A DNA stretch of 45,211 nucleotides from Candidatus Methanomethylicia archaeon (lineage in GTDB: Archaea; Thermoproteota; Methanomethylicia; CALHIW01): assembly GCA_038845975.1 (NCBI GenBank), contig JAWBQF010000022.1:1-45211 (forward strand), in the 5' to 3' direction. Both the position numbers and the translations under genes were made by a program. Below the pieces are notes generated by a model, which did no database searches, had not been told where the DNA came from, and worked only from the letters and a program-made list of their open reading frames with translations. Shown here piece after piece: positions 14,365 to 41,737 of the stretch; the stretch's first letter is position 1; the number at the start of each line of letters is the position of its first letter.

Positions 14365-15279
14365 TTATTCTAGACTTATGAATTTTTTAATTTCTTCCCT
14401 ACTCGGTAGGTTTAATCCTCCGCCAAGCTTCTCTACTTTAAGTGCTCCTATAATGTTTGCTAGTTTGAGGGAATATTTTATATCTTTCTTCCTCATGAAT
14501 CCGTAGATAAATCCAGCATTAAATACATCTCCAGCTCCAGTAGTATCTATTGGTTTTCTAGCTATTGTCCCCTCCTCAATTATTTTGTCGTTATAGTGTA
14601 CTTGAGCTCCTCTTTCTCCCATCTTCACTACAAGTATTCCTTCTGATTTAAGCTTTTCAATTGGTTTTCCTATATGTTTTTCAATTAGTTTTAACTCATT
14701 AATATTTAGGAAGCATATCTTAATACTCTCCAGAATTTCTTTAATCTCTTCTACTGGTATTAGGTTGACTAGAGGGCTTACATCGAAGAATATATCTATT
14801 CCTCTATCTCTACATATCCTGAAGGCTTTATATACAGCTTCATTTTCATATCTTGATGATATTCTCGCTAAGCTATAGCCTGAGAAATACAATGCCCTAG
14901 TATTGAACATGTCTTCTCTTATGTCCTCAGGCTTTAGGAAAACTGTTTCCCTATCGAATAGGGATATGAATGATTTTCTTCCTTTATATGTTAGAACTAA
15001 ACATGCCTTGGTTAAACCTTTCTTAACAATTACGCTTTCAACATCTATATTCTCTTTTACCAATGCATTTCTGATCGTGTCCCCGCTTATATCGTTTCCT
15101 ACACATCCTACTGCCTTAACTTTTAATCCCAGTCTTGAAGCCATTATTAGGAAGTTACTTGATCCTCCTGGCTGTCTCTCGATTCTTAATGGAATTAACG
15201 CTGATTCCGGCTTTAAAGGTTTAGGTAGCTCCAATATTATGTCTAGGATTAAATCATTTACTGTAGTAACATCATACAT
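14365..15279 (-). CDS. PfkB/ribokinase-family kinase
   Basis: PGGSSN, VGCVGND..G, N..E, VKMGERGA and DTTGAGDVFNAGF motifs. Confidence 0.92.
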   Translation of the reverse strand: MYDVTTVNDLILDIILELPKPLKPESALIPLRIERQPGGSSNFLIMASRLGLKVKAVGCVGNDISGDTIRNALVKENIDVESVIVKKGLTKACLVLTYKGRKSFISLFDRETVFLKPEDIREDMFNTRALYFSGYSLARISSRYENEAVYKAFRICRDRGIDIFFDVSPLVNLIPVEEIKEILESIKICFLNINELKLIEKHIGKPIEKLKSEGILVVKMGERGAQVHYNDKIIEEGTIARKPIDTTGAGDVFNAGFIYGFMRKKDIKYSLKLANIIGALKVEKLGGGLNLPSREEIKKFISLE

Positions 15280-15769
15280 TGCCTAGCCTCCTTTTAATTG
15301 ATTGGAAGATTATTGATGCTAATATAACGTTTACATATGATGCTACCATAAGTGATGGTGTTAAAGCTACTGCAAGCCCGAGGCCGAAGAATGGAGAGAA
15401 TAAAAACCCTCCAAGACCATTAAAGGTTGCAGCTATAATTGTACCTATTACTAGTCCTTTAGGTAAGTAATCATACGACAACTTAAGTAGAGAAGTAGCC
15501 CCCATCATGAATAATGCTATAAGTATATGTAGGAATCCTAGAGGGAAACCCGCATTCATTGATGTAGCTATATGTCCTAGAGCAGCTATAACTACCCCCT
15601 CAATATATCCGAATGCTAGGATTGAAAAGTATCCTGGAAGTGAATCAAGAGCTACAGTTCCTGTAGGGCTTGGAATCTTTATGAATGATCCTATAACAGC
15701 CAGAGATGTAAATATAGCTATTCTAGCTATTCTAACTGTTTTATGTTTACTCTTCAATATACTTAGCAT
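15272..15769 (-). CDS. cblT: ECF S-component, CblT-like (alpha-ribazole transporter)
   Basis: IKIPSPTGTVALDSLPGYF..GH..GFPLG..H; hydrophobic; adjacent to the CblS-like gene. Confidence 0.75.
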   Translation of the reverse strand: MLSILKSKHKTVRIARIAIFTSLAVIGSFIKIPSPTGTVALDSLPGYFSILAFGYIEGVVIAALGHIATSMNAGFPLGFLHILIALFMMGATSLLKLSYDYLPKGLVIGTIIAATFNGLGGFLFSPFFGLGLAVALTPSLMVASYVNVILASIIFQSIKRRLGNV

Positions 15770-15826
15770 AAACTCTCATGTTTGAGATGGATAAATATTT
15801 TTCCAAGTGTATTACAGATGTAGTAC

Positions 15827-16786
15827 CTAAATTATTTCCCCTATGGCTATATATGGTTTAGCTATATGTTTTGAGATTTCACTAAGTCTATTCCTATCGA
15901 TTGCAGCTATTATTGATGTAGCTGGTCCAGCTGATCCTTGGAGGTTAAGCTTTACGTCATCATATATTTTAATGTTCCTACCAATGTATTTAGCGAGAAT
16001 ATATGCTTTACTTAACGCTCCATCACTATCTACAGGTATTACCTCATGGATAAAGGGGAGATCTAGAAGTTTTAGAAGCTCCTTTAAACTTGGAATTTCA
16101 CCATTTAGATCTGCCTTAACAACCTCGTATCCTACACATGGTCTTCCAAGCATAACTATAATATCTCCTACCTGAGCAGTTCCAATCTTCAGATTTCTCT
16201 CATAGGAGAAGCCAATAACATTTACTCCTACTCCTGTCTGTATGGTGTGGAAATTCTCCTCAGTATCTATGCTTAGAATCAATGGGTCTAGATATATTTT
16301 CATCATTTCAGACCTGATTCCCCTAACTATTTCAGCTCCAATAGGCTCCATCTCAACACATATTGATGCTGAAACATATATAGGCCAAGATCCTGTAGAT
16401 AGAATCTCCATTAATGCTGCTCTAGTTATAAGTCTACCTAGAGTGAATCCATCAACCTTAACCTCATCCATGGGTTTAGGTCCTACACCACCTGATGAAA
16501 TACATGTTAAAGATAGAGTCATGCCATTAGGAAATCTTATAAATGTACAATTCCCCCTCCTACTTATTGAGAGACTTGATGGAGATATCTTAAAGTTTGG
16601 AGTTAGAATACCTCCTATATTCCTAATCATTTCCAAATATGTTAATAATGCATACTTTAATATCTGTGATCTAGGTAATCCATAACGTTCAGATATGAAG
16701 TTAAGCTCACTTACAATTTCTTTAGAGAGACGACAGCTAAGAATTCTACTATTACTTATAGTTTTACTAGTTGATCCCCTCATCAT
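15827..16786 (-). CDS. Ribbon-helix-helix domain fused to a CblS-like (PurM-fold) domain
   Basis: N-terminal ILSCRLSKEIVSELNFISERYGLPRSQILKYAL; GGVGPK..D, ALMEILSTG, TEENF..QTG.GV, G.P.VG.EV and SAGPAT. Confidence 0.8.
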   Translation of the reverse strand: MMRGSTSKTISNSRILSCRLSKEIVSELNFISERYGLPRSQILKYALLTYLEMIRNIGGILTPNFKISPSSLSISRRGNCTFIRFPNGMTLSLTCISSGGVGPKPMDEVKVDGFTLGRLITRAALMEILSTGSWPIYVSASICVEMEPIGAEIVRGIRSEMMKIYLDPLILSIDTEENFHTIQTGVGVNVIGFSYERNLKIGTAQVGDIIVMLGRPCVGYEVVKADLNGEIPSLKELLKLLDLPFIHEVIPVDSDGALSKAYILAKYIGRNIKIYDDVKLNLQGSAGPATSIIAAIDRNRLSEISKHIAKPYIAIGEII

Positions 16787-17445
16787 ACTATTTTGTAATC
16801 ATTTACCTTAATATAAATATAATCATTTTCCCTTATTATGCTATGATTTAATACTTGAATTGATTTTCTATAAATTGGAGATCTTAACACGATTGTATGG
16901 TATTCTCCTTTTTCACCGCATGGATCAATATTTACTGAAGAGCAGTATTCTAGAAACTCATTAAGAAACTCCTTATTTATTGTTTTCCCCAACAGTTTTC
17001 CATTCAATTTATCTCTTACACCACATATTATAGCCTCTATTCCATCATTTACCTCCTCAATTAAGATGTTTTTTGACTTCTCTTCACCACCAACCCATAA
17101 TGGCTCCACGCATTTAATACCTATAGGGCTACATAGTTTTTCAAGCCAGTTATAATGATCAATTAAGTAAATATCTCCCCCCACTACAGCTTCCACCCCT
17201 AGCTTCACTAGTAATCCTCTTAGAAACTCTACCTCAACCCCCTTCCTTGGGGAGCATTCAATTAACGGTAAACCTATAAGTTTAGCTTCAACTCTAACAA
17301 CCTCAATGTTTAATGCATGAGGAGATACTCTAGGAAAATCATAATTACAATATATTAAATACTTAACATCTAACCCCATTTTTAAGGCCTTAAACAATGC
17401 ATAAATAGACTCCTTACCTCCTGAAAAGAAAGATGCTGAAATCAT
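16783..17445 (-). CDS. Dph6/diphthine-ammonia-ligase-like PP-loop ATPase
   Basis: FSGGKES, GDIYL..H..W, EPLW and DPCGEKGEYHT motifs. Confidence 0.85.
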   Translation of the reverse strand: MISASFFSGGKESIYALFKALKMGLDVKYLIYCNYDFPRVSPHALNIEVVRVEAKLIGLPLIECSPRKGVEVEFLRGLLVKLGVEAVVGGDIYLIDHYNWLEKLCSPIGIKCVEPLWVGGEEKSKNILIEEVNDGIEAIICGVRDKLNGKLLGKTINKEFLNEFLEYCSSVNIDPCGEKGEYHTIVLRSPIYRKSIQVLNHSIIRENDYIYIKVNDYKIV

Positions 17446-19206: not shown

Positions 19207-21339
19207 ATGAAAGAATATATGGAGAAAGCATATGAGTATGCAAGAGAAACATATTATGGTATAGTAAAAAGGGCTGAATGCATAGCATATGGGATTCTTG
19301 AAAAAGAAATTTCATACACAATTGCCCTCAAGGTCCAGCCACCAGCACAGAATGCAAACTATACAATAGAAAAAGCATCAAAAGATACCCAGTATTCTCC
19401 GATTAAGGAGGAAGTTGATCTTATAGGATCTTCAGACGAGTTTAGAATATGCATTTTAGAGAATGTTCCAGGATTTCCATATGATAAATGCAAATACTAT
19501 CAGGCATACGGGATAATGGGCAAGATAGACATTTACATACCAGTAAAAATTGAGGTTTCAAAAAGAGTTGAAGGCAAGCCGGAAGACTTTATTCCATATG
19601 AAGTTTCAGCAATAATAGAATTGGCTGATCCACCAGAAAAACGACCAAAAGGAAGAAATGGAGCAAAATTTATAGATTCCATTATAAAAAAGGTTCCAGG
19701 AGGCGACAACTGTCCAGACATATTTGCTCCAAATGACTTCAGTGACAGGTGTAGAAGTAAAGGCGGCATAGACAAGATACAAAAAATAATATTGGATGAA
19801 AATAAAAAGGAATTTAAACTCTATAATTCTAATGCAGTCTTAGTACCAATAAAGGAAGTTGACGAAAGTAAAAAAGGCTATGCAAAAATATATTTACATT
19901 TTCCACCCATCAATGGAAATAATTATAGTCTTAAAATAAAACTTATCAATGGATGTGAAGAAGCTGTTTTAAAAGACAAGAATAATCCAAACTTACAAGT
20001 ACCTTATGTTCAAACTCCAACAATAACAATATGGAAAAGAGTTACGATAGAAATGATAGCTCTACAGGAGGGAATAAAATATGAGGACATAAACTGGAAA
20101 CTTATAAAGTCAACATTTTCACCTGCCTTTATAGAAGTTGAGGAACCGCCGCCGGGAAAAAGATACACGATAATGATGAAAGATTGGATGGATTATTTGG
20201 AAAAGGTAGTTTATAGTACTTGGCAAACTAATGCATGGAAAATATATAAAAATGCTAAATATACTACTATTCATCAACAAGACTTTGGTAGCTATTCTTT
20301 CCCCCAACCCCACAATAATATACCGAATTCTCAACTATTAACACCACCAGACAATAATCCAAAAAATCCTAACGAAACAACTTGGATGTTTTTAATGAAT
20401 ATAGCTAAGGAGATTTTTAAAGATATGCTTAATAAAATCAATAAAAATTATTACAACTTAATATCTTATCCTCTAAAAGGATATAATATTGGCTTCTGCG
20501 TTCTATTATGTAAACCTCCATTTTTGGGGTCAAGAGTTGGAGGATTACACTTTGGTAATAAACAGTTCTATTTTGTCTCAGGATGGAATATGGAAAAGAA
20601 ATTCGTCCACGAGCTTGGGCATGCGCTCTTTTTAACTCATGGGGCAACATATCTTGTAAGAGAATCTGATTATAAATTTATAACAAGTCGTGAAGAACTT
20701 GGTTCTGAAGGACCATACTGGGATGATCATGACAGCGAAGACATGATGTCATGTGTAATGTCATATTTTGCTAATGTTAATTGGCACTTCTGTGGTCTAT
20801 GCCAACTAAAGCTAAGATTATATGATAAGGAGAAAATGATAACAGGCAAAGACAATATCTTAAGAAAAATGTTGTATAGTAAAAAACCGAAAGTTTACTG
20901 GGTTGAAGATGTTCTCAAACAATCACAAAATGGAAAAATTCCCTGGCTTAAATTCCATGCAAACTCTAAATTCATTCTCAACAAAGGCGATGAAAAAGAG
21001 CTTAGATTAATTCCGTTATATCCTCCTGAAATTGTAAACAACGTAGATTATTACAAGGATTTAACAGGATTTACAAAAGGTATAAAGGGATCAAGTCCTG
21101 GTAGAGGATCCTGGCTTGTAGAAATAGAGGATCATGATTCAGGGCAATCTCGTATGGGAAACGTTAATGTCACAAAAAAGGGTAATTTTTGGATTTCAAC
21201 CATCAAAATCAACTACAGAGGGAAGACAACAGTAAAGTATAGAATTTATTACGACATAAATAAGTTTGTAGAAAGCGACCCACTAGTTATTGAAACAATA
21301 GAGGAACAAATGAGTAAGGTTGATAATTTTGAGCTTTAA
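19207..21339 (+). CDS. Large protein with metzincin-like Zn-metallopeptidase domain
   Basis: HELGHALFLTH, Met-turn-like CVMSY and FCGLC; A-rich codon usage unlike neighbours. Confidence 0.75.
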   Translation: MKEYMEKAYEYARETYYGIVKRAECIAYGILEKEISYTIALKVQPPAQNANYTIEKASKDTQYSPIKEEVDLIGSSDEFRICILENVPGFPYDKCKYYQAYGIMGKIDIYIPVKIEVSKRVEGKPEDFIPYEVSAIIELADPPEKRPKGRNGAKFIDSIIKKVPGGDNCPDIFAPNDFSDRCRSKGGIDKIQKIILDENKKEFKLYNSNAVLVPIKEVDESKKGYAKIYLHFPPINGNNYSLKIKLINGCEEAVLKDKNNPNLQVPYVQTPTITIWKRVTIEMIALQEGIKYEDINWKLIKSTFSPAFIEVEEPPPGKRYTIMMKDWMDYLEKVVYSTWQTNAWKIYKNAKYTTIHQQDFGSYSFPQPHNNIPNSQLLTPPDNNPKNPNETTWMFLMNIAKEIFKDMLNKINKNYYNLISYPLKGYNIGFCVLLCKPPFLGSRVGGLHFGNKQFYFVSGWNMEKKFVHELGHALFLTHGATYLVRESDYKFITSREELGSEGPYWDDHDSEDMMSCVMSYFANVNWHFCGLCQLKLRLYDKEKMITGKDNILRKMLYSKKPKVYWVEDVLKQSQNGKIPWLKFHANSKFILNKGDEKELRLIPLYPPEIVNNVDYYKDLTGFTKGIKGSSPGRGSWLVEIEDHDSGQSRMGNVNVTKKGNFWISTIKINYRGKTTVKYRIYYDINKFVESDPLVIETIEEQMSKVDNFEL

Positions 21340-22780
21340 AGAAAATCTTAAACTTCAAATAAAGTTTAAGAGAAGAAAGTTTGTTAGGGGAGAATCTATT
21401 CCAGTAAGGGTTTGCCTAGAAAATGTAGGTTCAGACACTCTATTAATTAACGAACTAACATCTTTATCAAGTTCTTTATATTTTAAAATTTTGGGAAAGT
21501 CAGGTTTTAAGAAATCGTTTACGCAACTTAGCTGGCTTTCACGTGAAGGCATCATACTACCCCCACCTGAAACAAAAACTTTTACGTTATCTCCAAATAG
21601 TAAAAAATGTTTGGACTTAGATTTGACAAAAATTTGTGGAGAACTAGCTGAAGACCTTTATAAAATAAAGGCAACATACACCTCTCACGGAATACTTTTC
21701 ATAGATTCAGAAATTGTCCGGATAAAGATTATACCATCAAAACCAGTATACATTTCATCAACTAGAGATTATTTAAGATATGTTTATAATCCAATATATA
21801 GTGTTTGGATTAATAAATATGACACGAAATACTTCTTATATTTAATGATGAACAGTCCAAACTTTCCTAAAAACATTTGGTACAATAAGTGTATAACGAG
21901 ATTAGATAAACCTTATGAGGTGCATGTTGCATTGCCTGAAAATTACGACCAAGGAAAAAATTGTATAGTTTGGAGTGAAAAAAACACTCTCTTTAAATGT
22001 ATTGTAGAAGATGAAAAGTTTTCTCTGAAAGGTTTCGAATTACCCTTCCAGGTAGACCGCATACTTGAACCGGCATATTTTTGTGAAGATGGAGTTTTAA
22101 TAACTTTAGCATACAGTTTTGTAGACAATTCTTCAACTATATATTTGATTAAGATAGGAGAAGACGGAAATGTTCAAATAAAATCTCTAGAAACATTCAA
22201 AGGAGTATTGGATGAATATAATCTTGTCTATGATGAAAGAACACGAGTACACCTAGTTTATACGATAAAAGGATACAATGAATGTTATTATATTAAAATT
22301 TTTGGCGAAAACCTAGAAAAAGAGAGTAAAAGCATACTTTTTAAGAGCAAAAGCCAATGCTTTGCACTACAGCTTTCAAATAATTGCATAAGTGATGAAG
22401 GAGAAAGAATTTTAGCCTTACACTATCTAATATTAGAAGACGATAGATTAAATGCCCACATTCTAAATGTTAATGAAAGGGTTGAAGTAAAAAACATTTT
22501 TATACCGGTTCAAAAAGAGCTTAGGTTAAGGTGTATAGATGTTATTTTAGACGAAACCTGCATGCCACACTACCTCTTCCAAGACAAAAATGGCATACTA
22601 TGGTATCAGCCAGTAGAAGGGGACATGATGCAGGCCTCCGAAAAAGGTGAAGTATGTCCTGGAAACATAGAGTTTCCAAAACTATTAATATCGTCAAGTC
22701 TAAGTATACATCATGGAATATTCATTAGATATATCAAAGATAGAAGAAATTTTGTGTACAAGAAGCTTGAGAAACTTTAA
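21320..22780 (+). CDS. Hypothetical beta-rich protein coupled to the peptidase
   Basis: 486-aa ORF overlapping the upstream stop; same A-rich composition; Ig-like GESIPVRVCLENVG N-terminus. Confidence 0.75.
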   Translation: MIILSFKENLKLQIKFKRRKFVRGESIPVRVCLENVGSDTLLINELTSLSSSLYFKILGKSGFKKSFTQLSWLSREGIILPPPETKTFTLSPNSKKCLDLDLTKICGELAEDLYKIKATYTSHGILFIDSEIVRIKIIPSKPVYISSTRDYLRYVYNPIYSVWINKYDTKYFLYLMMNSPNFPKNIWYNKCITRLDKPYEVHVALPENYDQGKNCIVWSEKNTLFKCIVEDEKFSLKGFELPFQVDRILEPAYFCEDGVLITLAYSFVDNSSTIYLIKIGEDGNVQIKSLETFKGVLDEYNLVYDERTRVHLVYTIKGYNECYYIKIFGENLEKESKSILFKSKSQCFALQLSNNCISDEGERILALHYLILEDDRLNAHILNVNERVEVKNIFIPVQKELRLRCIDVILDETCMPHYLFQDKNGILWYQPVEGDMMQASEKGEVCPGNIEFPKLLISSSLSIHHGIFIRYIKDRRNFVYKKLEKL

Positions 22781-24016: not shown

Positions 24017-24790
24017 TCAATCTATAGGCACTTCTGGATATATGTTGATTACCTCCCCCTTAAACTCCATTTCCCTATGGGTATAGTAAACGTTTTTCAA
24101 ATATTTTTTAGCTATTTCTACAGCTTCAATTACCTCTTTAGGGGAGGGGGATCGCCATGGCACATTGCCGAACGGCATGAAGCCATCGATTCTATACGGT
24201 ATATATGGATTAATATTTGCAATGAATTTAGCTATTTTCTCAATTTCATCTAGTCCAACCAATCCTGGAATTAAAATGCTTTCCGCCATAACTTTAATCC
24301 TGCTTTCACTAGCAAGCTTAAAATTATCTAGAACAGGCTTATTAGTTTGCCCTGTATAGAAATAGTGGATATCATCATTGTATGCTCTAATACTTATACA
24401 AATACTTGTAAGACCTGCTTTCTCCAGCTTTCTTATCATTTCCCAGTCTAAGATATAGCCATTAGTTGTCAAATAGGTTTTAATATTGAAATCATTAAGC
24501 AGCCGTATTACCTCCGGCAACTCTTCATCAAGAGTAGGTTCAGCTCCACCTAGAATAGCCTCTCCAGTATTGATTTTTCCAATAATAGACTTAAACTCAC
24601 TTAAAGTTAATAGCTTAATATGCTTAATTTCTTTGAGGCGGCGTTTTAAATCTTCTGGGAGATGATAATACCATATAGTATCCTTTAAATAGCAGCCTCT
24701 ACATTGAAAGTTGCATCCCTGAAAAGATATATAAATAGAATTATCATATGTATGTTGTACAATCTGATAAATCCTCGTCATCTCCATCAC
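24017..24790 (-). CDS. Radical SAM protein, activase-like
   Basis: GCNFQCRGC, GGAEPT, TNGY and LIPG motifs; paralogue of 26210-27034. Confidence 0.9.
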   Translation of the reverse strand: MMEMTRIYQIVQHTYDNSIYISFQGCNFQCRGCYLKDTIWYYHLPEDLKRRLKEIKHIKLLTLSEFKSIIGKINTGEAILGGAEPTLDEELPEVIRLLNDFNIKTYLTTNGYILDWEMIRKLEKAGLTSICISIRAYNDDIHYFYTGQTNKPVLDNFKLASESRIKVMAESILIPGLVGLDEIEKIAKFIANINPYIPYRIDGFMPFGNVPWRSPSPKEVIEAVEIAKKYLKNVYYTHREMEFKGEVINIYPEVPID

Positions 24791-24940
24791 TTAACAAATA
24801 GTTTAAATAAACTCGCTTAAAGCTTTGCTGTTTAGTAAATCTGTCTAAGTAGGATTAGGTAAATTAATTTAAAAATAAGTAGTTAGATCTAATGTTTTTA
24901 ATATTTAAAGGTTGTTATGGTCTACAATAATGTTTAATTA

Positions 24941-25035
24941 TCATACTATAAGCAACATCATAACATATATGAAAGATATATTATCAGTAATCATGATGAA
25001 TAGGATTGAAGCTGAAGATGATGGAACACTATGTT
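24941..25035 (+). repeat. Repeat family B, copy 3
   Basis: Contains the 40-bp core plus the extension shared with 18819-18935. Confidence 0.85.
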
Positions 25036-25047
25036 TTCAGCGATAGG

Positions 25048-25093
25048 TTTATAAGTTTAATTTTTTAGGTAGAATTGCCTGGTAAAATTTCCT
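25048..25093 (+). promoter_or_regulatory. TATA box plus two tandem candidate operator sites
   Basis: TTTATAAG at 25048; GGTAGAATTGCCT (25068) and GGTAAAATTTCCT (25081). Confidence 0.55.
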
Positions 25094-25109
25094 ATAAATA
25101 AGTGAGAAT

Positions 25110-26213
25110 ATGAATTGGAAGCTGGTTTCAGCTATCTTAGTTATAGCTTTGATAATAGTTGGCTATATAGCTATCCAATCCTTAACTACTTATAAAACCT
25201 ACACCATTACTAGTACTGAGTATAGAACAACTGTAACAACAGCTATCGAATATAGAACAGTAACAAAAACAGTAACAACTCCACCTCCAAAGTATCCGTT
25301 AACAGTTATGGATTTTCTAGGTAGAAATGTAAATATTACTAAGCCTCCACTAAGAATTGTTTCCTGTTCTCCACTATGTACGGAGGTTGCTGCTGTACTT
25401 GAACTTACAGATTTTATTGTCGGCGTTGATGATTATACTGATTTTCCTCCAAGTATTGTTAAGCTTAAGGAGCAGGGTAAGGTTTCAAGTGTTGGTGGTG
25501 TTACAACTTTAAGCGTTGAAGCTGTTGCTACGCTTAAACCTGATTTAGTTCTAGTTTCAGCAAGCCTCCAGAAGAAGTTTATACCTACGCTTGAGGAGCT
25601 TGGATTAACAGTTATAGCTTTAGATGCTAGAAACATTAATGATGTTTATAGTGAGATATTGATTCTAGGTAAAGTTACAGGTAGGGAGGAGCTTGCTGAG
25701 AGGATTGTTAATGAGATGAAGGATAGGATTGAAGCTATTCAGCAATCCCTCGCGGCTGTTAGAGTTAAGGTTAAGGTTTTCCAGTCTTCATGGCTTGAAC
25801 CAATATGGACTACAGGTAATGGAACATTCCTAAACGATATAATAAGACTTGCTGGAGGATACAATGTGTTTATGGATGCTAGTGGATGGATAACTGTAAG
25901 CCCTGAATCTATAGTTGAGAGGAATCCTGAAGTTATATTTATTGGATGCACAATGATGGGTTTAAAACCTGAGGATGTTGAGTTAAAGCTAAAACAGATT
26001 CCAGGATTAGAGAATGTAGAGGCTGTAAGAAAGAATAGAGTCTACTTACTTTACGAGCAGGCTGAAAACATATTTGTAAGAGCTGGACCGAGAGTTGCTG
26101 AGGCTATTGAGCTTCTAGCTAAAATACTATACCCTGAAGTATTCAATACTAATATTCCGAATGTTATAGGGGATAATTATTTAAACTACGTTAAGCCCAT
26201 GGTGAAGCAATGA
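25110..26213 (+). CDS. btuF: BtuF-like ABC substrate-binding protein, membrane anchored
   Basis: N-terminal TM helix, Thr-rich linker, YPLTV.DFLGR.V.I..PP.RIVS, LKPDLV and RAGPRV. Confidence 0.8.
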   Translation: MNWKLVSAILVIALIIVGYIAIQSLTTYKTYTITSTEYRTTVTTAIEYRTVTKTVTTPPPKYPLTVMDFLGRNVNITKPPLRIVSCSPLCTEVAAVLELTDFIVGVDDYTDFPPSIVKLKEQGKVSSVGGVTTLSVEAVATLKPDLVLVSASLQKKFIPTLEELGLTVIALDARNINDVYSEILILGKVTGREELAERIVNEMKDRIEAIQQSLAAVRVKVKVFQSSWLEPIWTTGNGTFLNDIIRLAGGYNVFMDASGWITVSPESIVERNPEVIFIGCTMMGLKPEDVELKLKQIPGLENVEAVRKNRVYLLYEQAENIFVRAGPRVAEAIELLAKILYPEVFNTNIPNVIGDNYLNYVKPMVKQ

Positions 26214-27034
26214 ATACTAAAATATTCCACATAACTTTTTATGATTATGACTTATCAGCATACATACACTTCCTAGACTGCAACTTTAAATGTAGAGGAT
26301 GTATAAGAAAGATAAGCATATGGGATAATCACCTACCTACCAATGTAAGAAACAATCTTAAACTGTTGAGAAGCTTAAAGATTGAGGAGCTTAGAGATAT
26401 TGTAAATATACTAATTCGTAAATACAGCTTGAAACGTGTAGTTCTCGGTGGTGGTGAACCTACAACAGATAGCTCTCTACCATCAATACTTTCACTATTA
26501 GAGTCTTTAAATATTGAGGTTAAACTACTGACAAATGCTTACAGTATGGATAGTGAGGTAGCTAGTATGCTGGCCCGTAAGGGATGTGAGGCTATTGTAA
26601 GTATTAAATCAATTGATCCCAGTAAGCATCTAGACTATACAGGCTTTCCTCTCAATCGGGTTTTAGAGAATTTTTCAGGAATGTATAGGCTTGGTGTAAA
26701 TGTATCTGTTGAAACAATACTTATTCCAGGCTTTAATGATCCTATCGATATAGTAGGTATAGCTAAATACATATCATCAATAAATAGTGGAATACAATTA
26801 ATTATAGATTCATATGTTCCTGTACCCGGCTCTTCATGGAGGAGACCGAATATGAATGAGCTTGAAGAAGCTGAATATCTATCTAAACAGTATCTTTCAA
26901 ATGTTTATTGTAGAGGTAAAGTAATATCGGAAGGTAGAGGTAGAGTATATTTAGTATATCCAAATCCCCAGGATAACCTTAATATTCCTGAGTTTGCAGG
27001 CTATAATATTTCAAATTGTTTTGAGGGAATTTAA
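26210..27034 (+). CDS. Radical SAM protein, activase-like
   Basis: CNFKCRGC, GGGEPT and ETILIPGFND; ATGA overlap with btuF. Confidence 0.9.
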   Translation: MNTKIFHITFYDYDLSAYIHFLDCNFKCRGCIRKISIWDNHLPTNVRNNLKLLRSLKIEELRDIVNILIRKYSLKRVVLGGGEPTTDSSLPSILSLLESLNIEVKLLTNAYSMDSEVASMLARKGCEAIVSIKSIDPSKHLDYTGFPLNRVLENFSGMYRLGVNVSVETILIPGFNDPIDIVGIAKYISSINSGIQLIIDSYVPVPGSSWRRPNMNELEEAEYLSKQYLSNVYCRGKVISEGRGRVYLVYPNPQDNLNIPEFAGYNISNCFEGI

Positions 27035-28053
27035 TGTACGTTAAGGCTAAGAAGCTTAAACTACTAGTAACTACATTATCCGGCATAGTTATTCTATTTC
27101 TTCTAAGTATTCTCTCATTATCTATTGGCGCTTCACGTATTGGATTTCTAGATGTTCTACAGGCTATTAGGGGGATTGGTGATCAATCTATTGTTAATGT
27201 GGTTTGGAATATTAGGTTTCCAAGACTTCTCTCAGCTATGCTTGTCGGCTTCCTTCTTTCTGTTTCAGGAGTTGTTATGCAGACTCTATTCCGTAATCCA
27301 CTTATAGATCCATATATTGGAGGTATTGCTTCAGGAGCTGCTTTCGGGGCATCTTTATCCCTCCTACTTGGATATACTCTTCTATCCCCTTCATCACCAT
27401 ATGCAATACCATTAACATCATTTATTGGCTCCTTCACCTCCCTTCTATTAACACTCCTACTTTCACGTTTAGCCGGTGGATCACCATTAAGCCTCCTACT
27501 TTCAGGAATTGCTGTAGGTCTCTTCTTCTCTTCAGCTACAACTGTAGTTATAGTGGCTGGTGGGGAGAAGGCTCATGGAGTTATTTTCTGGCTTTTCGGA
27601 AGCTTTGTAACATCTTCATGGCGTTTCCTAGCAATAGCATTCCCAGTATCGATTATAGCCATTATGTACGTGTTTCTAAATGCTAGAAGGCTTAATGCTC
27701 TCCTCCTAGGTGATGAAGATGCCTCCCAGCTTGGAGTAAGCGTTAAAGTGTTAAGATATACTCTACTAACTATTCTATCTATACTTTCAGCTCTAGCAGT
27801 ATCCTTCAACGGTATTATTGGATTTATAGGTTTAATGGCTCCACATATATCTAGACTTATTGTTGGTAGTGATCATAGGCTCCTCCTACCTTTAAGTATG
27901 CTTATAGGCTCAACAATTCTTGTTCTTGCAGATGTTGCTGCTAGAATGCTTATAGCTCCAGCAGAGCTTCCTGTAGGTGCTATAACCTCCGTTATGGGTG
28001 TACCTGTCTTTATACATCTATTATTAAGAAGGGGTAGATACTATGAGCTTTAA
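27034..28053 (+). CDS. btuC: BtuC/FecCD-family permease
   Basis: IRFPR, MQTLFRNPL.DP, LGDEDASQLGV, GIIGFIGL.APH and ELPVG motifs. Confidence 0.9.
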   Translation: MYVKAKKLKLLVTTLSGIVILFLLSILSLSIGASRIGFLDVLQAIRGIGDQSIVNVVWNIRFPRLLSAMLVGFLLSVSGVVMQTLFRNPLIDPYIGGIASGAAFGASLSLLLGYTLLSPSSPYAIPLTSFIGSFTSLLLTLLLSRLAGGSPLSLLLSGIAVGLFFSSATTVVIVAGGEKAHGVIFWLFGSFVTSSWRFLAIAFPVSIIAIMYVFLNARRLNALLLGDEDASQLGVSVKVLRYTLLTILSILSALAVSFNGIIGFIGLMAPHISRLIVGSDHRLLLPLSMLIGSTILVLADVAARMLIAPAELPVGAITSVMGVPVFIHLLLRRGRYYEL

Positions 28054-28822
28054 GGAGATAATTGTTAGTGATTTATCGTTTAGTTATGGTAGGGTTGAAG
28101 CATTAAGGAAGATATCGTTCACTATACGTGGAGGTGAATTTATAGGTATTCTAGGCCCTAATGGCTCCGGTAAAACTACACTACTGAAATGTCTATGTAG
28201 TCTTCTAAAACCATACGGTTCAATATATATTGATGGAACATCAATATATAAGTATAGTGCCAGGGAAATTGCAAGAATGATCTCCTATATTCCACCAACA
28301 CCTCTTCCAGGTGGGCTATCAGTATTTGATACCGTCTCCCTAGGTAGGACTCCCCATATGAAGGGTTTATGGTGGGAGTCTAGAGAGGATGAGGATCTAA
28401 TTCAATACTCTCTAAAATCTTTAAATCTGGATGGATTAGCTGACAGGAGGGTTTGTGAGCTTAGTAGTGGGGAGCAGCAGAGGGTTAAGATAGCTAAGGC
28501 TATTACACAGCAGCCTAAAATACTGCTTGTAGATGAGCCTACAGTTCATCTTGACTTAAAGCATCAAGTTGAGATTATGGATATTCTTAAAAGCCTAACA
28601 TATAAGGGGTTAGCTGTCATAGCTGCACTCCACGACTTAAATCTAGCACTAACATATAGCGATAAAGTCGTAGTTTTAAATAGTGGTAGAATTGTTGCTT
28701 ATGGTGATCCGAAAGTAATCCTTACAGAGGAGTTGATAGAGAGGGTTTATGGTGTTAAGGTTAAGATCATGTGGGATAATGAGTTAAACCATCCAGTAAT
28801 AACAATACTTAAAGCGGGCTGA
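28043..28822 (+). CDS. btuD: BtuD/FecE-family ABC ATPase
   Basis: GPNGSGKTT, LSSGEQQRV, DEPT.HLD and HDLNLA motifs. Confidence 0.9.
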   Translation: MSFKEIIVSDLSFSYGRVEALRKISFTIRGGEFIGILGPNGSGKTTLLKCLCSLLKPYGSIYIDGTSIYKYSAREIARMISYIPPTPLPGGLSVFDTVSLGRTPHMKGLWWESREDEDLIQYSLKSLNLDGLADRRVCELSSGEQQRVKIAKAITQQPKILLVDEPTVHLDLKHQVEIMDILKSLTYKGLAVIAALHDLNLALTYSDKVVVLNSGRIVAYGDPKVILTEELIERVYGVKVKIMWDNELNHPVITILKAG

Positions 28823-28828
28823 TGTTTT

Positions 28829-29596
28829 ATGAGGATAGTTAGCTTATGGCCCTCGATATCAGATACCATATCTAAACTCGGATTAGAGGATTCTATTATT
28901 GGTGTTACACCATACTGTTTAAAATACTTAAAGTTAAAGCATAGAGTTGTTGGGAGCTGTCTTGAGGTCGATTCTCCTAAGCTTAGTAATCTAAAACCTG
29001 ACATAGTACTCCTAGAAGGTAGACTGCAGAAGGGTATTGCTGAGAAATTGATGAGGGAGGGATATAGTGTATATCTAATTCCATTTCCAAGAAGTATATT
29101 TGGAATTCTTGAAAACATAATTCTCATAGGTTCAATACTTGGAAGGCTTACTGAAGCTAGGAGGCTAGCCTACGAAATACTTAACGAGTTGATTGGTCTT
29201 AAAAGGAGGGAGCTAGCGGGATCCATATATGTTGAGCTTTGGCTTGGTGATGATATTGTTACATGCGGATCATTAACGTATATCGATGATATGCTTTCCT
29301 GGATTGGTCTTCAAAACATATTTAGTGATGTAGCATCCGAATTCTTTAAGCCTAACTTTAACCATGTTAAGATAAGGAATCCCCACTTAATTGTAGTAAA
29401 TTATGAACCCTATCCTAAGCATAGAGAGAGGATATCTAATATACTGGAAATCTTTAAGGAGAGGGGATGGGAGGATATGGAGGCTATTAAGAGGAGGAAA
29501 GTAATACTGATAGAAGAGAGCAGTACTGTTAACCTAGCTCATCACGGTCCATCAACAATTACCAGTACATTAAGATATCTCTTATCAAGGTCTTAG
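28829..29596 (+). CDS. Second BtuF-like binding protein without signal peptide
   Basis: Starts directly at MRIVSLWPS; LKPDIV, NIFSD and HHGPS; no hydrophobic N-terminus. Confidence 0.85.
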   Translation: MRIVSLWPSISDTISKLGLEDSIIGVTPYCLKYLKLKHRVVGSCLEVDSPKLSNLKPDIVLLEGRLQKGIAEKLMREGYSVYLIPFPRSIFGILENIILIGSILGRLTEARRLAYEILNELIGLKRRELAGSIYVELWLGDDIVTCGSLTYIDDMLSWIGLQNIFSDVASEFFKPNFNHVKIRNPHLIVVNYEPYPKHRERISNILEIFKERGWEDMEAIKRRKVILIEESSTVNLAHHGPSTITSTLRYLLSRS

Positions 29597-29597
29597 A

Positions 29598-30451
29598 ATG
29601 AATAGCCAAACCTATAGGAAAATACCATCTATAGAAGCTATAGTAAGCCCAGTAAGGAGGATATATATTAATCTAGCAGGATGCAATTTTAATTGTAGAT
29701 CCTGTTTTGCAATAGCTAAGTATGATGTTGGCAGAGAGTTTACAGTTAGCAATCTTGTAGAATTTATACTTAAAATATGCAGTTATATATGGGGGATATA
29801 GCCAGCGAAGCTGTATTAACAGGCGGTGAGCCAACTCTTAACCCCTCCTATATGTTTAATCTGATCGAGAGGTTAAAGAATCTTAATATGAAGGTTGAGG
29901 TTTCAACTAATGGATACCTACTTGCTAATAAGGATTATATAGATAAGCTAAAGAAATGTTGTGTTGACCTAGTTAAAATAGATTTAAAGGCATTCAGTAA
30001 TGGCATACATCAATGGTATACGGGTAAGGATAATGAAAACGTATTGAAAGCTATTAAGCTATTACATGATCAAAATATAAATTTCCTTATACGTACAATC
30101 TTTATCCCTGAAGTAGTTGATTTTAATGAGATCGAGAGGATAGCATTATTCATAGCAGGTATTAGTAGGAATATTCCATATAGAATATACCAATTTGTAC
30201 CTAGCCCTGGAATTTCAAGAAGACCTACAAGAGATGAGATGATCAAGGCTTTAGAGATAGTTAAACAGTATTTAAATGATGTTAATGCACTAATTGATGT
30301 TGAATCCTTCCGTGCTGATTGGAGACATATTGAAATATGTTCTGACGATCTTTATGAAGTATATAGGGATATAGCTGAAAAATCGGAAAAAGCCATTAGA
30401 GGATGGAAGCAAAGATATAGAATAGTTAAAATGAGCGAGATATCCAAATGA
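29598..30451 (+). pseudogene. Radical SAM protein, activase-like, split by a 1-nt frameshift (possibly an assembly error)
   Basis: GCNFNCRSC in the first ORF and TGGEPT/STNG/IDLK in the second; one extra G in GGGGG at 29791-29795 fuses them. Confidence 0.8.
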
Positions 30452-30466
30452 ATTTGGGATGGCGTT

Positions 30467-31156
30467 ATGGTTAAAGCCTATATAGTCGGCGTCGGTCCCG
30501 GCTCATCTGAGTACTTAACGGAAAAGGCTAGAAAAGTAATTAGTGAAGCAGATATTATTGTTGGCTGGAGGCTTGATTTACTGCCTGCAGATAAACTAAT
30601 TAAAAATAAGGAAGTCTACATACAGGATGTTGATAACTATATTGAGGTTGTTAGTAGAGCTGCTGAAAGAGCTAAGCTAACAGGTAAAAGTATTGCCGTG
30701 TTGAGGATAGGTGATCCATGCATTTCATCAGGTCTAAACGGTCTTCTAAAAATATTTAAGGACTTTGATGTCGAAATTATTCCCGGAATAAGCTCCATAC
30801 AAGTTGCAGCATCTATAGCGAAAATAAACCTTGATGAATCCGTTATAGTTTCCCTTCATGATGGTGGGAATGCTATTAGAAAGATGGAGTTTATAGCTAA
30901 TATGCTTAATTATGGTAGACATGTAATACTACTTACAGGCCCTGAGCTTAAATTAGAGGAAGCTGCGGGAGCTCTAATCGCTAACGGTATAAGTAAGCAA
31001 ACACCAGTTATTGTCTGTGAAAATTTAACGCTTAGAGGAGAATATGAAGGACTTCATGAAAACGTGTTTGTAGGGGTATTAGAGGATCTCCTATTGAGGA
31101 GATTTTCATGGCTTTCAATAGTTGTTATTAAATGTAGGGATCATAATGAATATTAA
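30467..31156 (+). CDS. CbiE-like tetrapyrrole (class III) methyltransferase
   Basis: IVGVGPGS.EYLT..A, GDPC.SG, IPGISSIQ.A, SLH and CENLT motifs. Confidence 0.88.
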   Translation: MVKAYIVGVGPGSSEYLTEKARKVISEADIIVGWRLDLLPADKLIKNKEVYIQDVDNYIEVVSRAAERAKLTGKSIAVLRIGDPCISSGLNGLLKIFKDFDVEIIPGISSIQVAASIAKINLDESVIVSLHDGGNAIRKMEFIANMLNYGRHVILLTGPELKLEEAAGALIANGISKQTPVIVCENLTLRGEYEGLHENVFVGVLEDLLLRRFSWLSIVVIKCRDHNEY

Positions 31157-32172
31157 CCCCCCATCACTAGTTCTTTGGTTTGCTACGGAGAAATGCGATG
31201 TCGGATGTAAACACTGCTGCTATCCACCCCTAAGTGGAAGAGAGCCGGGAACTGATGAAGCTAAGCTTTTAATATCAAATGTAGCTAAGCTCGGAGCTAA
31301 ATACTTTGCTTTTATAGGTGGTGAACCACTACTTAGAGAAGATATTACTGATCTAGTTAAATACTGTATTAATTGTAGGTTGAAGCCCTATATAGTTACG
31401 AAGGGTGGAAGATTAGCCGGCGGGGAGGCTGAGAAGCTAGCTAAAGACCTCCATAGGTTAGGAGTTAAGATTACGGTTGCTGTTGATGGTGTAACCCATT
31501 CAGTTATAGATGCGATATGCGGAAAGCCTGAAATATACGATAGGATTATGAATACCATTAAGGTATGTTTAAAACACAATATTCTTCAAGGCTTCGTAAC
31601 TGCGGCATTAAAGCCAAACATCTCCGAGATACCGTTAACACTTGATTTAGCATCAAAGATCAATTTGGAGAGATGTGTAATATTTGGAATTAGGCCTACA
31701 GGTAGAGGTAGAAGTACATTTAATATGTTTGCCCCCTCACCTTTAGAATACGAGGAATTCATGAGGAAGATAGCTTTAGAAGCTAGGAGGGGAAGATGGA
31801 GGCAGGAAGTTTTCGTTTATGATCCGTTATTTATGAGAATACTTAAAGAGACTTCTTCACAACAGTACTCTAAAATATGTAGGATAGTTATATTTTGATA
31901 TAGATTCTATGGGTTATGTAATGCCATGTCTCTTCGCATCTTTAAGGTTTGGAAACATACTGGAAGATCCTATAGAGGAGACACGTTACAATATGATTGT
32001 TAAGACGAGAGATCTAAGAGATCCTGAAAAGCTAAAGGGAAAATGTAGATCCTGTAATTATAGGAGTATATGTGGAGGATGTAAGGTTAGATCATATGAG
32101 TTAGGTGGAGACTGGTTTGGGGAGGATCCATTATGCAGCTACAACCCGGAGGAATCTACATCGTCGGGATAG
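31146..32172 (+). pseudogene. Radical SAM/SPASM protein (NirJ/Ahb-like) split by a frameshift near 31886
   Basis: CDVGCKHC and GGEPLLR; SPASM Cys motifs (MPC, C..C.....CGGC..R, DPLC) lie in the second ORF. Confidence 0.8.
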
Positions 32173-32801
32173 GTCCCGGAGATCCTCAATATCTAACTCT
32201 AAGAGCAAGAGGAATTCTGGAAAGAGCTGATATTATAATTGGATTTAGACAGGTATTATCCATAGTAAGGAATATGACTGGTGGAGTAATGTTAGCTCTT
32301 GATAACGATGTAGTTAATACATTAAAATACGTAAGTATGGAAGCTAAGGCAGGAAAGCTATGTGTAATATGCTGCTGGGGTGATCCTAAATTCTCTAATG
32401 TAGAGTTTATTAAACTCATTAGAGAAGTATGTGAAGATGTTAAAGTTATATGTGGGATAAGCTCTATACAGATAGCTTGCTCTATACATGGATTACCGAT
32501 GGAGGAGGCAATATTTATAACATTTCATAAAAGCGGATCATTAGATAACGATAAGAATGAATTATTAACATTCCTAAGGAATAGTACGAGGAAGATAGTA
32601 TTGCTACCTAGACCGTGGGATTTCATGCCAAGGGAGATAGCGGAGTTCCTAATAAACAATAATTTGCCTCCTGAAATTAAATGTACTATATATGAAAACC
32701 TTACTCTAGAAAATGAGAGAATTAGGAGATTTAGGTTGCTTAATCTAGCACATTGTAGTGAGAGATTTAGCGATTTAACCATAATGATTATAGAACGTTA
32801 A
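32133..32801 (+). CDS. Second CbiE-like tetrapyrrole methyltransferase
   Basis: IVGIGPGDPQYLT, GDP.FS, GISSIQ.A, TFH and YENLTLENE motifs. Confidence 0.88.
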   Translation: MQLQPGGIYIVGIGPGDPQYLTLRARGILERADIIIGFRQVLSIVRNMTGGVMLALDNDVVNTLKYVSMEAKAGKLCVICCWGDPKFSNVEFIKLIREVCEDVKVICGISSIQIACSIHGLPMEEAIFITFHKSGSLDNDKNELLTFLRNSTRKIVLLPRPWDFMPREIAEFLINNNLPPEIKCTIYENLTLENERIRRFRLLNLAHCSERFSDLTIMIIER

Positions 32802-32813
32802 AATCATTTAGTT

Positions 32814-33830
32814 ATGTATTCTCCACATCATATAGCCTGGCAAACAACATATAAATGCAACTTGTCATGTATTCACTGCTATGCAGCTGGTGTAAGTAAA
32901 AATTTACTCTCAACAACTGAAGCTAAAAGAATCATTTTAGAGGCATTAGAGATAGGTGTAAAGGCATTTGTGTTTACAGGAGGCGAACCCCTACTTAGAG
33001 ATGACATTATGGATTTGATAATTTATGTCTCTGATTTAGGTTTAAAACCTATACTAGCAACTAACGGTACCCTACTAGATGAAAATAGAATTAGAATATT
33101 AAAGGAATTTAAGGCATCAGTAGCAATAAATCTTCCGGCAATCAATGAAGAGATACACGAAAAATTCACGGGCGTAAAATCATCATTAAGGCTTAAGCTT
33201 AACACAATCAATAAATGTAGGGAATATGGATTAGAATGCTCCATTGGAATTGCTATTACTAAGTTAAACATGGTGGATATTGATTCCATAATTCAACACA
33301 TGGAGAATATGGAGATCGATATACTCGCCACCATACCCTGCGGTAGAGCCTCACCAGATATTATTCCAAGCGGTTTTGAATACTATTCCCTCCTTAAACA
33401 TCTTCATGATAAATGGAAAGCATACCCAATGAATATGTATGGAAAAGCTAGAATATATGTTTATGAACCCATATACAATGCTTTACTTGCTATAAGTAGC
33501 TATATGGAGAGTTTAAGTAGGCTTTGCTCAATAGGTGAAACCCTACATGTAATGGAGGATGGTAGTATTAAAACTTGTATTTATCTACCATACGTTTTAG
33601 GTAACGTAAGAAAGACAAGTTTAGCTAATATATGGAGGAAGCTAGTCTATGATAAACTTATAGGTAGACTTAGAGATCCCAAAGAGCTTAAGGGATACTG
33701 TAATGTTTGTAAATTAAGGAATGTATGTGGAGGATGTAGAGCAAGAGCCTACCACATGGTAGGAGATTTATTTGCCTCAGATCCTATATGTAGCCTACCT
33801 ATTAGTACTAACGGTAATATCTCCATATAG
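32814..33830 (+). CDS. Radical SAM/SPASM protein (NirJ/Ahb-like)
   Basis: W.TT..CNLSCIHCY, TGGEPLLR, ATNGT and CNVC..CGGCRARAY..GD..SDPIC motifs. Confidence 0.9.
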   Translation: MYSPHHIAWQTTYKCNLSCIHCYAAGVSKNLLSTTEAKRIILEALEIGVKAFVFTGGEPLLRDDIMDLIIYVSDLGLKPILATNGTLLDENRIRILKEFKASVAINLPAINEEIHEKFTGVKSSLRLKLNTINKCREYGLECSIGIAITKLNMVDIDSIIQHMENMEIDILATIPCGRASPDIIPSGFEYYSLLKHLHDKWKAYPMNMYGKARIYVYEPIYNALLAISSYMESLSRLCSIGETLHVMEDGSIKTCIYLPYVLGNVRKTSLANIWRKLVYDKLIGRLRDPKELKGYCNVCKLRNVCGGCRARAYHMVGDLFASDPICSLPISTNGNISI

Positions 33831-37213: not shown

Positions 37214-37217
37214 ATTT

Positions 37218-41731: not shown

Positions 41732-41737
41732 TGGTCT

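Follow-up and report, generated by a model that had tools for sequence, protein, structure and literature searches.

We identified, at positions 15827-16786 on the minus strand of a 45,211-nucleotide stretch of archaeal DNA (contig JAWBQF010000022.1 of assembly GCA_038845975.1, from a Candidatus Methanomethylicia archaeon; the whole stretch is hereafter called the window), a gene whose product joins a ribbon-helix-helix (RHH) domain to a domain related to CblS, the alpha-ribazole kinase of Firmicutes. This fusion, derived from CblS, probably senses a ligand without catalysis and serves as a transcription factor for alpha-ribazole salvage, which would act at a palindrome at 15809-15826. The gene and its two predicted domains are located as follows.

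15827-16786, minus strand: gene for the RHH and CblS-like fusion, 319 aa, stop codon included
16613-16747, minus strand: putative RHH DNA-binding domain, residues about 14-58 (strand ILSCRLS, helices 22-35 and 39-55)
15830-16573, minus strand: CblS-like PurM-fold domain, predicted to be a non-catalytic sensor, residues 72-319

That this open reading frame (ORF) fuses an RHH domain with a CblS-like domain, as the original prediction had proposed, was confirmed by comparison with its relatives. Full-length homologues of the fusion were found at E 1e-110 to 1e-67, far beyond chance. A word-indexed search with the fusion returned 83 relatives, of which about 64 are full-length (roughly 309 aa), most of these with precomputed RHH_1 and/or AIRS domains, while the remainder are shorter and lack the N-terminal part. 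Pfam is nearly silent on the fusion alone (AIRS at E 0.011), with neither RHH_1 nor AIRS matched at E <= 0.01; when each of the 80 aligned fused relatives was searched against Pfam, RHH_1 was found in 76/80 and AIRS in 72/80. An AlphaFold model of the fusion (mean pLDDT, the predicted local distance difference test, of 86.7) has helices at residues 22-35 and 39-55, a low-confidence linker and a two-domain alpha/beta body. We read the fusion as RHH-CblS because of the relatives' RHH_1 matches, the placement of its model among PurM-superfamily structures by Foldseek, and its alignment to a protein named alpha-ribazole kinase. NCBI names the full-length relatives "ribbon-helix-helix protein, CopG family", and the only names that public records hold for the family are "CopG family", "selenophosphate synthetase-related" or hypothetical. 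A metagenome scan for close relatives found an identical copy only, and the sole other genome of the host's order (62% complete) had no match to the fusion.

Residues 72-319 of the fusion (248 residues) align end to end with residues 1-247 of P0120 (34% identity, E 1e-42), a 247-aa protein named alpha-ribazole kinase by both NCBI and UniRef. Furthermore, a profile of the unfused forms retrieved the bacterial proteins P0100, P0120, P0154, P0157, P0167 and P0184, all named alpha-ribazole kinase or alpha-ribazole-5-phosphate synthase; the CblS identity of these relatives is that of NCBI/UniRef naming and is not assay-based. In a passage of one paper, CblS is described as the alpha-ribazole kinase and CblT as a transporter (PMC6461909). 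No CblS-specific NCBIfam model matched the fusion or six of its relatives, and sequence searches of the PDB with the single protein, a 10-row profile and a 129-row profile returned nothing significant. Comparison of the predicted structure by Foldseek gave 107 matches at E <= 0.001, including SelD (3u0o, E 3e-14), ThiL (5cm7, 8e-14), HypE (2z1f, 1e-13) and PurM (9jzz, 1e-12) as well as PurL, these families spanning 3e-14 to 1e-11. The model places the C-terminal body in the PurM superfamily, with the two-domain PurM fold. The PurM Dx4GAxP-type motif reads E127-ILST-G-S-W-P in the fusion, Ex4GAxP in unfused CblS and Dx4GAxP in most fused forms; as described in part of a published analysis, the Dx4GAxP or [DE]x4G[AS]xP motif is linked to ATP and Mg binding and a GVGTK stretch lies by the substrate site (PMC2978367).

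The RHH domain of the fusion is assigned by homology rather than by a direct Pfam match. Among the fused relatives the best PF01402 match reaches E 4.8e-10, and the near-invariant residues of the family are kept in the fusion (R19, L20, L37, R39, S40, A46, L47 and Y50), which itself has a weak RelB-like NCBIfam match (E 0.13, residues 19-55). In the predicted structure an extended segment is followed by the two helices at 22-35 and 39-55, so that the N-terminus models as the strand-helix-helix fold that the original prediction expected of it. A homodimer model scored 0.79 against 0.43 for the best control, a mark reached by 20/30 proteins solved as same-chain pairs and by 1/23 solved as single chains; runs shared at least 81% of contacts and the pLDDT of the partner was at least 83. 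The modeled interface comprises RHH residues 13-54 of both copies (with residues 13-22 and 39-54 of the two copies touching) together with strands of the PurM N-domain, which indicates that the RHH and PurM dimerizing modules can both be satisfied at once. Because PurM-superfamily dimers have already been solved, the dimer score may reflect likeness only. A toxin-antitoxin reading of the RHH domain was rejected, there being no toxin partner gene and the RHH being fused to a 250-aa domain.

Two acidic residues that the original prediction expected in CblS are replaced in the fusion. It had read RGN and CISSGG where CblS was expected to have RD and CDS.GG; both readings are exact (residues 76-80 are RRGNC, with R77-G78-N79, and residues 95-100 are C95-I96-S97-S98-G99-G100), and the unfused relatives indeed carry R-D and C-D-S-x-G-G at those columns. 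The two codons are the following.

16550-16552, minus strand: codon for N79; all ungapped unfused members have Asp in this column
16499-16501, minus strand: codon for I96, at the position of Asp in the CDSxGG motif

Residue counts were taken over all sequences from the relative search and the unfused-profile search plus the fusion (203 in total; P0001, which is the window's own protein, was dropped, and the N-terminally cut P0065 was counted as fused). Column 96 is Asp in 129/129 unfused sequences and in 0/73 fused ones, where it is Thr (41), Ser (24), Ile (4) or Ala (4). Column 79 is Asp in 127/130 unfused sequences, the other 3 being gaps, and in 67/73 fused sequences; Asn occurs there in only 4/73, namely the window fusion and P0002-P0004. 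An exhaustive search of 1.84 billion representatives gave 445 matches at E <= 0.001, among them 145 new 50%-identity representatives. Eight of these have an RHH-like N-terminus, and 8/8 carry Thr or Ser at column 96; one more has a hydrophobic, non-RHH extension and keeps the Asp. The other 136 have Asp in 128 cases, gaps or fragments in 5, and N, G or H in 3. These last three (P0261, P0331 and P0332, respectively) are unfused CblS-family representatives without the CDS Asp, and may be further non-catalytic offshoots or sequencing errors.

In ThiL, according to an excerpt of the source, the metal-coordinating Asp30, 47, 75 and 211 are strictly conserved, with Asp47 and Asp75 holding the Mg that contacts the gamma-phosphate (PMC13254938). 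The spacing from 79 to 96 in the fusion, 17 residues, equals that from Asp30 to Asp47 of ThiL, and in a weak profile match (E 0.29) the CDS-GG-VG-K stretch aligns with TTDGVGTK of P. horikoshii PurM. Judged from motif and spacing, the equivalents of ThiL Asp30/47/75/211 would be 79, 96, 127 (the first residue of the Ex4G[AS]xP motif) and, tentatively, 208. By this mapping the metal-coordinating acidic set is incomplete in the fusion, with Asn at 79 and Ile at 96. The loss of the two residues that had been predicted is thus plain, and their role as Mg-ATP ligands is suggested by motif and spacing.

The fused forms make up a single clade (FastTree support 0.99), within which the window fusion and P0002-P0004 form a subclade (support 1.0). 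In the enzymes, 40 columns show conservation of at least 90%; the fused set retains 33 of them, has lost 4 (R78, D96, S174 and E127, the last to D) and retains 3 in part, including C95 (to S). Such a pattern, with the pocket retained and a few invariant residues gone, is the one expected of an enzyme turned binding module.

If the fusion is a regulator, it should have a site on DNA, and a candidate lies directly beside its gene.

15809-15826, not assigned to a strand: candidate operator, an imperfect palindrome GTACTACA-TC-TGTAATAC (read on the minus strand), one mismatch from the Bathyarchaeia-derived consensus
15791-15800, minus strand: A/T-rich TATA-like box AAATATTTAT, read from the sequence, a putative promoter element

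The motif was learned in another class. In Bathyarchaeia the fused gene and a cblT-cblS operon are transcribed divergently, and the intergenic regions share an A/T box (ATAAAAG; CTTTTAT on the other strand) and, about 10 nt from it and before the fused gene, a palindrome GTATTACA-N2-TGTAATAC whose distal half is often TGTAGTGT. Eighteen Bathyarchaeia sites, none of them from the window, were used to build a position weight matrix (PWM). It scored at least 12 within 170 bp upstream of the RHH-coding start at 12/18 other distinct fused loci; of 720,792 background positions, all over 1.3 kb away from a fused gene's RHH-coding start, none reached that score. The window holds a single consensus match, at 15809-15826, which scores 17.7 against 4.4 for the next best place in the window and has the top score of 5,528,116 positions in the 2.77-Mb genome. 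Runners-up in the genome (17.6 and 15.7; C3:8765 and C37:3788) fall within ORFs and were regarded as chance matches. A degenerate pattern with at most 1 mismatch was found at 3 places in the genome (the two others inside an ORF, L057, or weak, L056) against 1 forward and 2 reverse in a backwards control, and only the exact window site was taken as meaningful. The motif therefore reappears at the one place that the regulator hypothesis predicts.

The window operator sits in the 57-bp gap between the fusion and a cblT-like gene, starting at the base after the stop codon of the fusion. It is followed by 8 nt, the box AAATATTTAT, 21 nt and the ATG of the cblT-like gene, which puts the box about 26 nt before the ATG; this spacing fits the usual archaeal TATA-to-start distance and a leaderless promoter. 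The GTATTACA half faces cblT in the window, the same orientation relative to cblT as in Bathyarchaeia. There, the site lies between the A/T box and the ATG of the regulator and also upstream of the cblT TATA, a placement that suggests autorepression; the window site has only the second of these positions, ahead of the cblT-like TATA. The original prediction had looked to the btuF and cob promoters for binding, and in this it did not hold up: the PWM scan of the genome found no strong operator at either, nor any site upstream of the Dph6-like gene that precedes the fusion, and the only strong site outside an ORF is the one before the cblT-like gene. Its central proposal of a transcription factor gained independent support from a palindrome that several archaeal classes conserve beside the fused gene, at the cblT promoter, or at both.

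Loci in which the two promoters are separated agree with this assignment. Where an extra gene stands between them (L023, L025 and L027), two sites occur, the regulator and cblT each being preceded by its own. In the Methanocella genome G202, the regulator (L059, contig C10) and cblT-cblS (L034/L062, contig C61) are on different contigs; the regulator's own palindrome, GTGCTACA-TT-TGTAGCAC, scores 12.2 and the site at cblT-cblS scores 33.3. With the regulator thus apart from its predicted target operon, Methanocella, whose phylum is not that of the window, provides a natural example of action in trans.

The company that the fused gene keeps points to the same pathway. We compared 37 genome loci, comprising 30 with the fused gene, one cut by a contig end and 6 with unfused cblS only. 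At 18/30, all of Bathyarchaeia type, an operon that pairs a cblT-like S component with an unfused cblS runs divergently from the fused gene. The divergent operon consists of a cobT-like gene (a weak PF02277 match, just above cut-off), then cobD and cbiB in L018, and of an iPGM-like gene, then cobD and cbiB in L019. In Nitrososphaeria (L038; 2862-4900) it holds energy-coupling factor (ECF) components S, AA' and T, then an ADP-ribosylglycohydrolase-family gene and PfkB, and in L002 (5927-7923) the glycohydrolase-family gene and then PfkB are divergent from the fused regulator; the glycohydrolase-family gene is also found in L003-L005. No unfused cblS was found in the genomes of L002 and L038 (G204 and G205). 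The ADP-ribosylglycohydrolase family acts on alpha-ribosyl bonds, and its member here may process alpha-ribosides such as alpha-ribazole. In the unfused-only loci an S-component gene lies directly 5' of cblS in 5/6. All of these partner operons belong to the lower-ligand and nucleotide-loop branch of cobamide synthesis.

Cobalamin riboswitches (RF00174) lie directly upstream of cblT-cblS in both bacterial loci scanned.

L037:7126-7311: cobalamin riboswitch, RF00174, 106 bits
L036:2274-2469: cobalamin riboswitch, RF00174, 87 bits

The same scan of three archaeal loci (the window, L008 and L034) found none, in keeping with the earlier suggestion that a protein stands in for the B12 riboswitch.

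In the window, the fusion is the second gene of a four-gene string on the minus strand, in which the Dph6-like gene and the fusion are followed, after the 57-bp gap, by the S component and PfkB.

16783-17445, minus strand: PP-loop ATP pyrophosphatase of Dph6-like / TTX_0299 type (PF01902, E 1.3e-47; NF052347 below its cut-off)
15272-15769, minus strand: cblT-like ECF transporter S component, 165 aa, the predicted regulated gene (PF12822, E 1.4e-8)
14365-15279, minus strand: PfkB-family kinase, 304 aa, candidate replacement alpha-ribazole kinase (PF00294, E 2.5e-42)

The stop of the Dph6-like gene overlaps the start of the fusion by 4 bp, making one transcription unit, and the PfkB and S-component genes share 8 bp; the PfkB product reaches no NCBIfam equivalog cut-off. 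In tblastn segments the window S component is 35-54% identical to S components beside cblS in archaeal and bacterial loci. Dph6-like homologues also occur near cobamide loop genes at L033:4198-4830, L024:16546-16908 and L032:9831-10037, which hints at a role for this PP-loop ATPase in the cobamide pathway.

The genome appears to need what this string would supply. The window is dense in cobamide salvage genes, including a corrinoid adenosyltransferase and a BtuF/C/D-like transporter, and two further features bear on the lower ligand.

38245-42685, plus strand: nucleotide-loop and corrinoid salvage cluster of cbiZ with a PgpA-like domain, a cobY-like gene, a cobD-like aminotransferase, cobS and cbiB (Pfam)
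35837-35990, plus strand: frame-shifted 3' remnant of an archaeal cobT-like gene (tblastn, collinear pieces in frames +1, +3 and +2)

Read from its gene content, the cluster would be the pathway that consumes alpha-ribazole phosphate. The remnant, which lies upstream of it, matches residues 309-360 (the last ~52 codons) of the L018 cobT-like protein (L018:6811-7902), and no ORF longer than 35 aa is present at 35837-35990. In the host genome (93% complete) we found no PF02277 cobT, for which control genomes were positive, no match to the L018 protein and no second CblS-like gene, that is, no unfused cblS. Two EcfT/CbiQ genes elsewhere in the genome could energize the solitary S component. With no cobT, a decayed cobT remnant and no unfused cblS, the lineage probably depends on imported alpha-ribazole and needs a kinase for it, and the co-transcribed PfkB kinase is the obvious candidate.

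Three observations concern other parts of the window. An iPGM-like 'Metalloenzyme' gene (37011-38255, plus strand) precedes the cbiZ cluster and a similar gene heads the cobD-cbiB operon of L019 (L019:6525-7820), making it a recurrent member of the loop-assembly neighborhood. Two long ORFs at 19207-22780 on the plus strand (710 and 486 aa) have no Pfam match at E <= 0.001, and the first contains an HExxH-like HELGH. Finally, an unusual cluster at 24017-33830, beside the B12 salvage genes, interleaves six radical-SAM and two tetrapyrrole-methylase genes with BtuF/C/D-like transporter genes.

We propose that a dimer of the fusion binds the palindrome at 15809-15826 through its RHH ribbon. As the operator abuts the B recognition element (BRE) and TATA box of the cblT-like gene, the dimer would control the unit of the S component and PfkB. 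The former alpha-ribazole kinase domain, with most of its pocket kept and enzyme-invariant residues lost, would serve as a small-molecule binding module and not as a catalyst, and binding of a lower-ligand nucleotide to the CblS-derived domains would change the affinity for DNA. We favor alpha-ribazole 5'-phosphate as the effector, with alpha-ribazole as the alternative, because the phosphate is the common product of the cblT-cblS and cobT routes, both under the same operator architecture, and because it is the natural product ligand of the CblS pocket. The S component would import alpha-ribazole, and the co-transcribed PfkB would phosphorylate it. The domain architecture, residue losses, clade structure, synteny, and the palindrome and its position, on which this proposal builds, are direct observations.

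Several points weigh against this proposal. The fusion itself has no PF01402 RHH_1 match at E <= 0.01, and sequence searches found no CblS structure in the PDB; it is from motif, spacing and one weak PurM alignment that positions 79 and 96 are assigned as putative Mg ligands. Since all fused forms belong to a single clade, fusion and Asp loss became linked in one ancient event that was maintained, and not through repeated convergence. D79, D107, D/E127 and D208 are present in most fused proteins, which may thus still bind nucleotide or even retain some activity. The target subclade has further substitutions (D79N, G253D, E260K and K284G) at columns conserved in both the fused and unfused groups, and it may for this reason bind a different ligand than the Bathyarchaeia proteins do. 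No PWM site was found at 6/18 non-seed fused loci (four Nitrososphaerales, L017 and L051, the last with a variant palindrome scoring only 6.9), and the second-best position in the host genome, inside an ORF, scores 17.6. An operator upstream of the BRE and TATA fits activation or repression (by exclusion of transcription factor B, TFB) alike. Our statements on DNA binding, on lost kinase activity, on the effector, on the sign of regulation and on what PfkB does are inferences from these data.

Conservation of the operator, its orientation and its place beside a cblT homologue between the window and the cblT-cblS loci speaks for an alpha-ribazole-type effector, as do the many cobamide salvage genes of the window and the production or use of alpha-ribazole phosphate that regulated operons elsewhere have in common. 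It is on these grounds that we regard as unlikely, though worth serious consideration, a transcription factor that acts at the same operator in response to something else, such as ATP/ADP, 5,6-dimethylbenzimidazole (DMB), the complete cobamide, or another riboside of the S component and PfkB, with a specificity that may have changed in the target clade. Such a change would suit the D79N, G253D, E260K and K284G substitutions at columns conserved in all other members, and also the neighbors of the fusion in the window, where PfkB and a PP-loop ATPase stand in place of cblS, unlike in Bathyarchaeia. The substrate of the S component is a prediction from homology, and the Nitrososphaeria partner operon combines an ADP-ribosylglycohydrolase-family enzyme with PfkB, both of which leave room for a different riboside.

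The fusion could instead be a bifunctional protein, a DNA binder that is still an alpha-ribazole kinase and, as the only CblS in the host genome, supplies alpha-ribazole phosphate. With no unfused cblS or cobT found in that genome some kinase is needed, 33/40 enzyme-conserved columns are kept in the fused forms, and RbkR offers a precedent, being described in a passage of one paper as bifunctional (PMC8305020); this possibility is nonetheless quite improbable, since the CDS Asp, invariant in 129/129 enzymes, is replaced by Ile here and is missing from all 81 fused sequences, and since the fusion has also lost D79 and is changed at R78, C95 (partly) and S174. Moreover, an intact cblS adjoins the fused gene in 18/30 loci, which leaves no need there for the fused copy as an enzyme, and in the window a PfkB kinase is co-transcribed. 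Least probable by far is that the fusion does not regulate at all, its RHH being only an antitoxin-like dimerization or protein-interaction module and the palindrome a terminator or the site of another factor: the lack of a direct Pfam RHH match, the antitoxin families among the RHH matches and the position of the palindrome immediately behind the stop codon, a place that would also suit a terminator hairpin, would all allow it, but the palindrome is upstream of the fused gene and not after it in Bathyarchaeia, travels with the cblT promoter when the promoters are separated or on different contigs, and has an A/T-rich stem with a 2-nt spacer and no T run following on the transcribed strand, and there is no toxin partner gene.

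A CblS-derived sensor and transcription factor would resemble several known systems without matching any of them. The fusion is like CblS of Firmicutes in its full-length homology to CblS-named proteins, its PurM-type fold and its cblT-like neighbor, the latter an ECF S component 57 bp downstream that is homologous to those beside cblS. It differs in adding an N-terminal RHH and in having Ile for the Asp of CDSxGG, Asn for the Asp of RD, and changes at R78 and S174; from this comparison, made with database-named CblS proteins, the fusion is predicted to sense and not to catalyze. ThiR, an archaeal vitamin regulator, consists of a DNA-binding domain and a pathway enzyme domain, and the DNA-binding fold of both RbkR and ThiR is a helix-turn-helix. 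The parallel that the original prediction drew with these two proteins stands as to design, in that a pathway enzyme domain is reused as the ligand module of an archaeal vitamin-pathway regulator where bacteria use riboswitches. By its fusion architecture, and by an operator at cblT and, in relatives, at the regulator's own promoter, the fusion would take its place among these enzyme-derived archaeal vitamin regulators. The likeness is one of design without homology; the fusion has an RHH, a PurM-fold kinase domain and a place in the cobamide lower-ligand pathway. As to RbkR the parallel is incomplete: that protein keeps its enzyme activity and is, in the part of the source concerned, both gene regulator and enzyme (PMC8305020), whereas the fusion has lost enzyme-invariant residues.

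Cobalamin riboswitches (RF00174; L037 and L036) regulate the same genes from the same position directly upstream of cblT, and the fusion and its operator are thus likely to be their functional analogue. The riboswitch is an RNA that senses the complete corrinoid, whereas here a protein with a lower-ligand-type pocket would work through a DNA operator. Regulators of the MetJ and NikR type have an RHH dimer joined to a ligand-binding domain and a palindromic operator near the promoter. The fusion shares with this general description an RHH, a ligand domain and a palindrome near a promoter; it differs in that its sensor is a PurM-superfamily pseudo-kinase, which itself dimerizes through its N-domain. 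We know of no transcription factor for the cobamide nucleotide-loop or lower-ligand branch in archaea, and a search of open-access full-text literature found no description of an RHH-CblS fusion or of an archaeal lower-ligand transcription factor.

The data also allow a wider account, which we offer tentatively. CblS-derived archaeal pseudo-kinases may sense alpha-ribazole 5'-phosphate, with one palindrome, next to an A/T box common to both sides, both shutting the regulator's own divergent promoter and governing cblT-cblS or cobT; in the window lineage, cobT would have decayed, cblS would have gone, PfkB would have taken over, and the sensor would be the only CblS to survive. If this is true, the family would be, going by the literature searched, the first protein-based sensor of the cobamide lower-ligand nucleotide to be described, and it would do the job of the bacterial B12 riboswitch while reading the lower-ligand branch instead of the finished cofactor.

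The family provides a regulator that can be tested directly, its 18-bp operator being defined and its candidate ligands few. It is also a clean natural case of an enzyme turning into a sensor, in which one invariant Asp is replaced in every fused member while 33/40 columns persist. It points to candidates for missing enzymes, namely the PfkB alpha-ribazole kinase and the ADP-ribosylglycohydrolase-family partner. Finally, it gives a handle on how uncultured Bathyarchaeia, Nitrososphaeria, Methanocella and the lineage of the window choose between making and scavenging the lower ligand, a choice that bears on B12 cross-feeding in sediments and soils.

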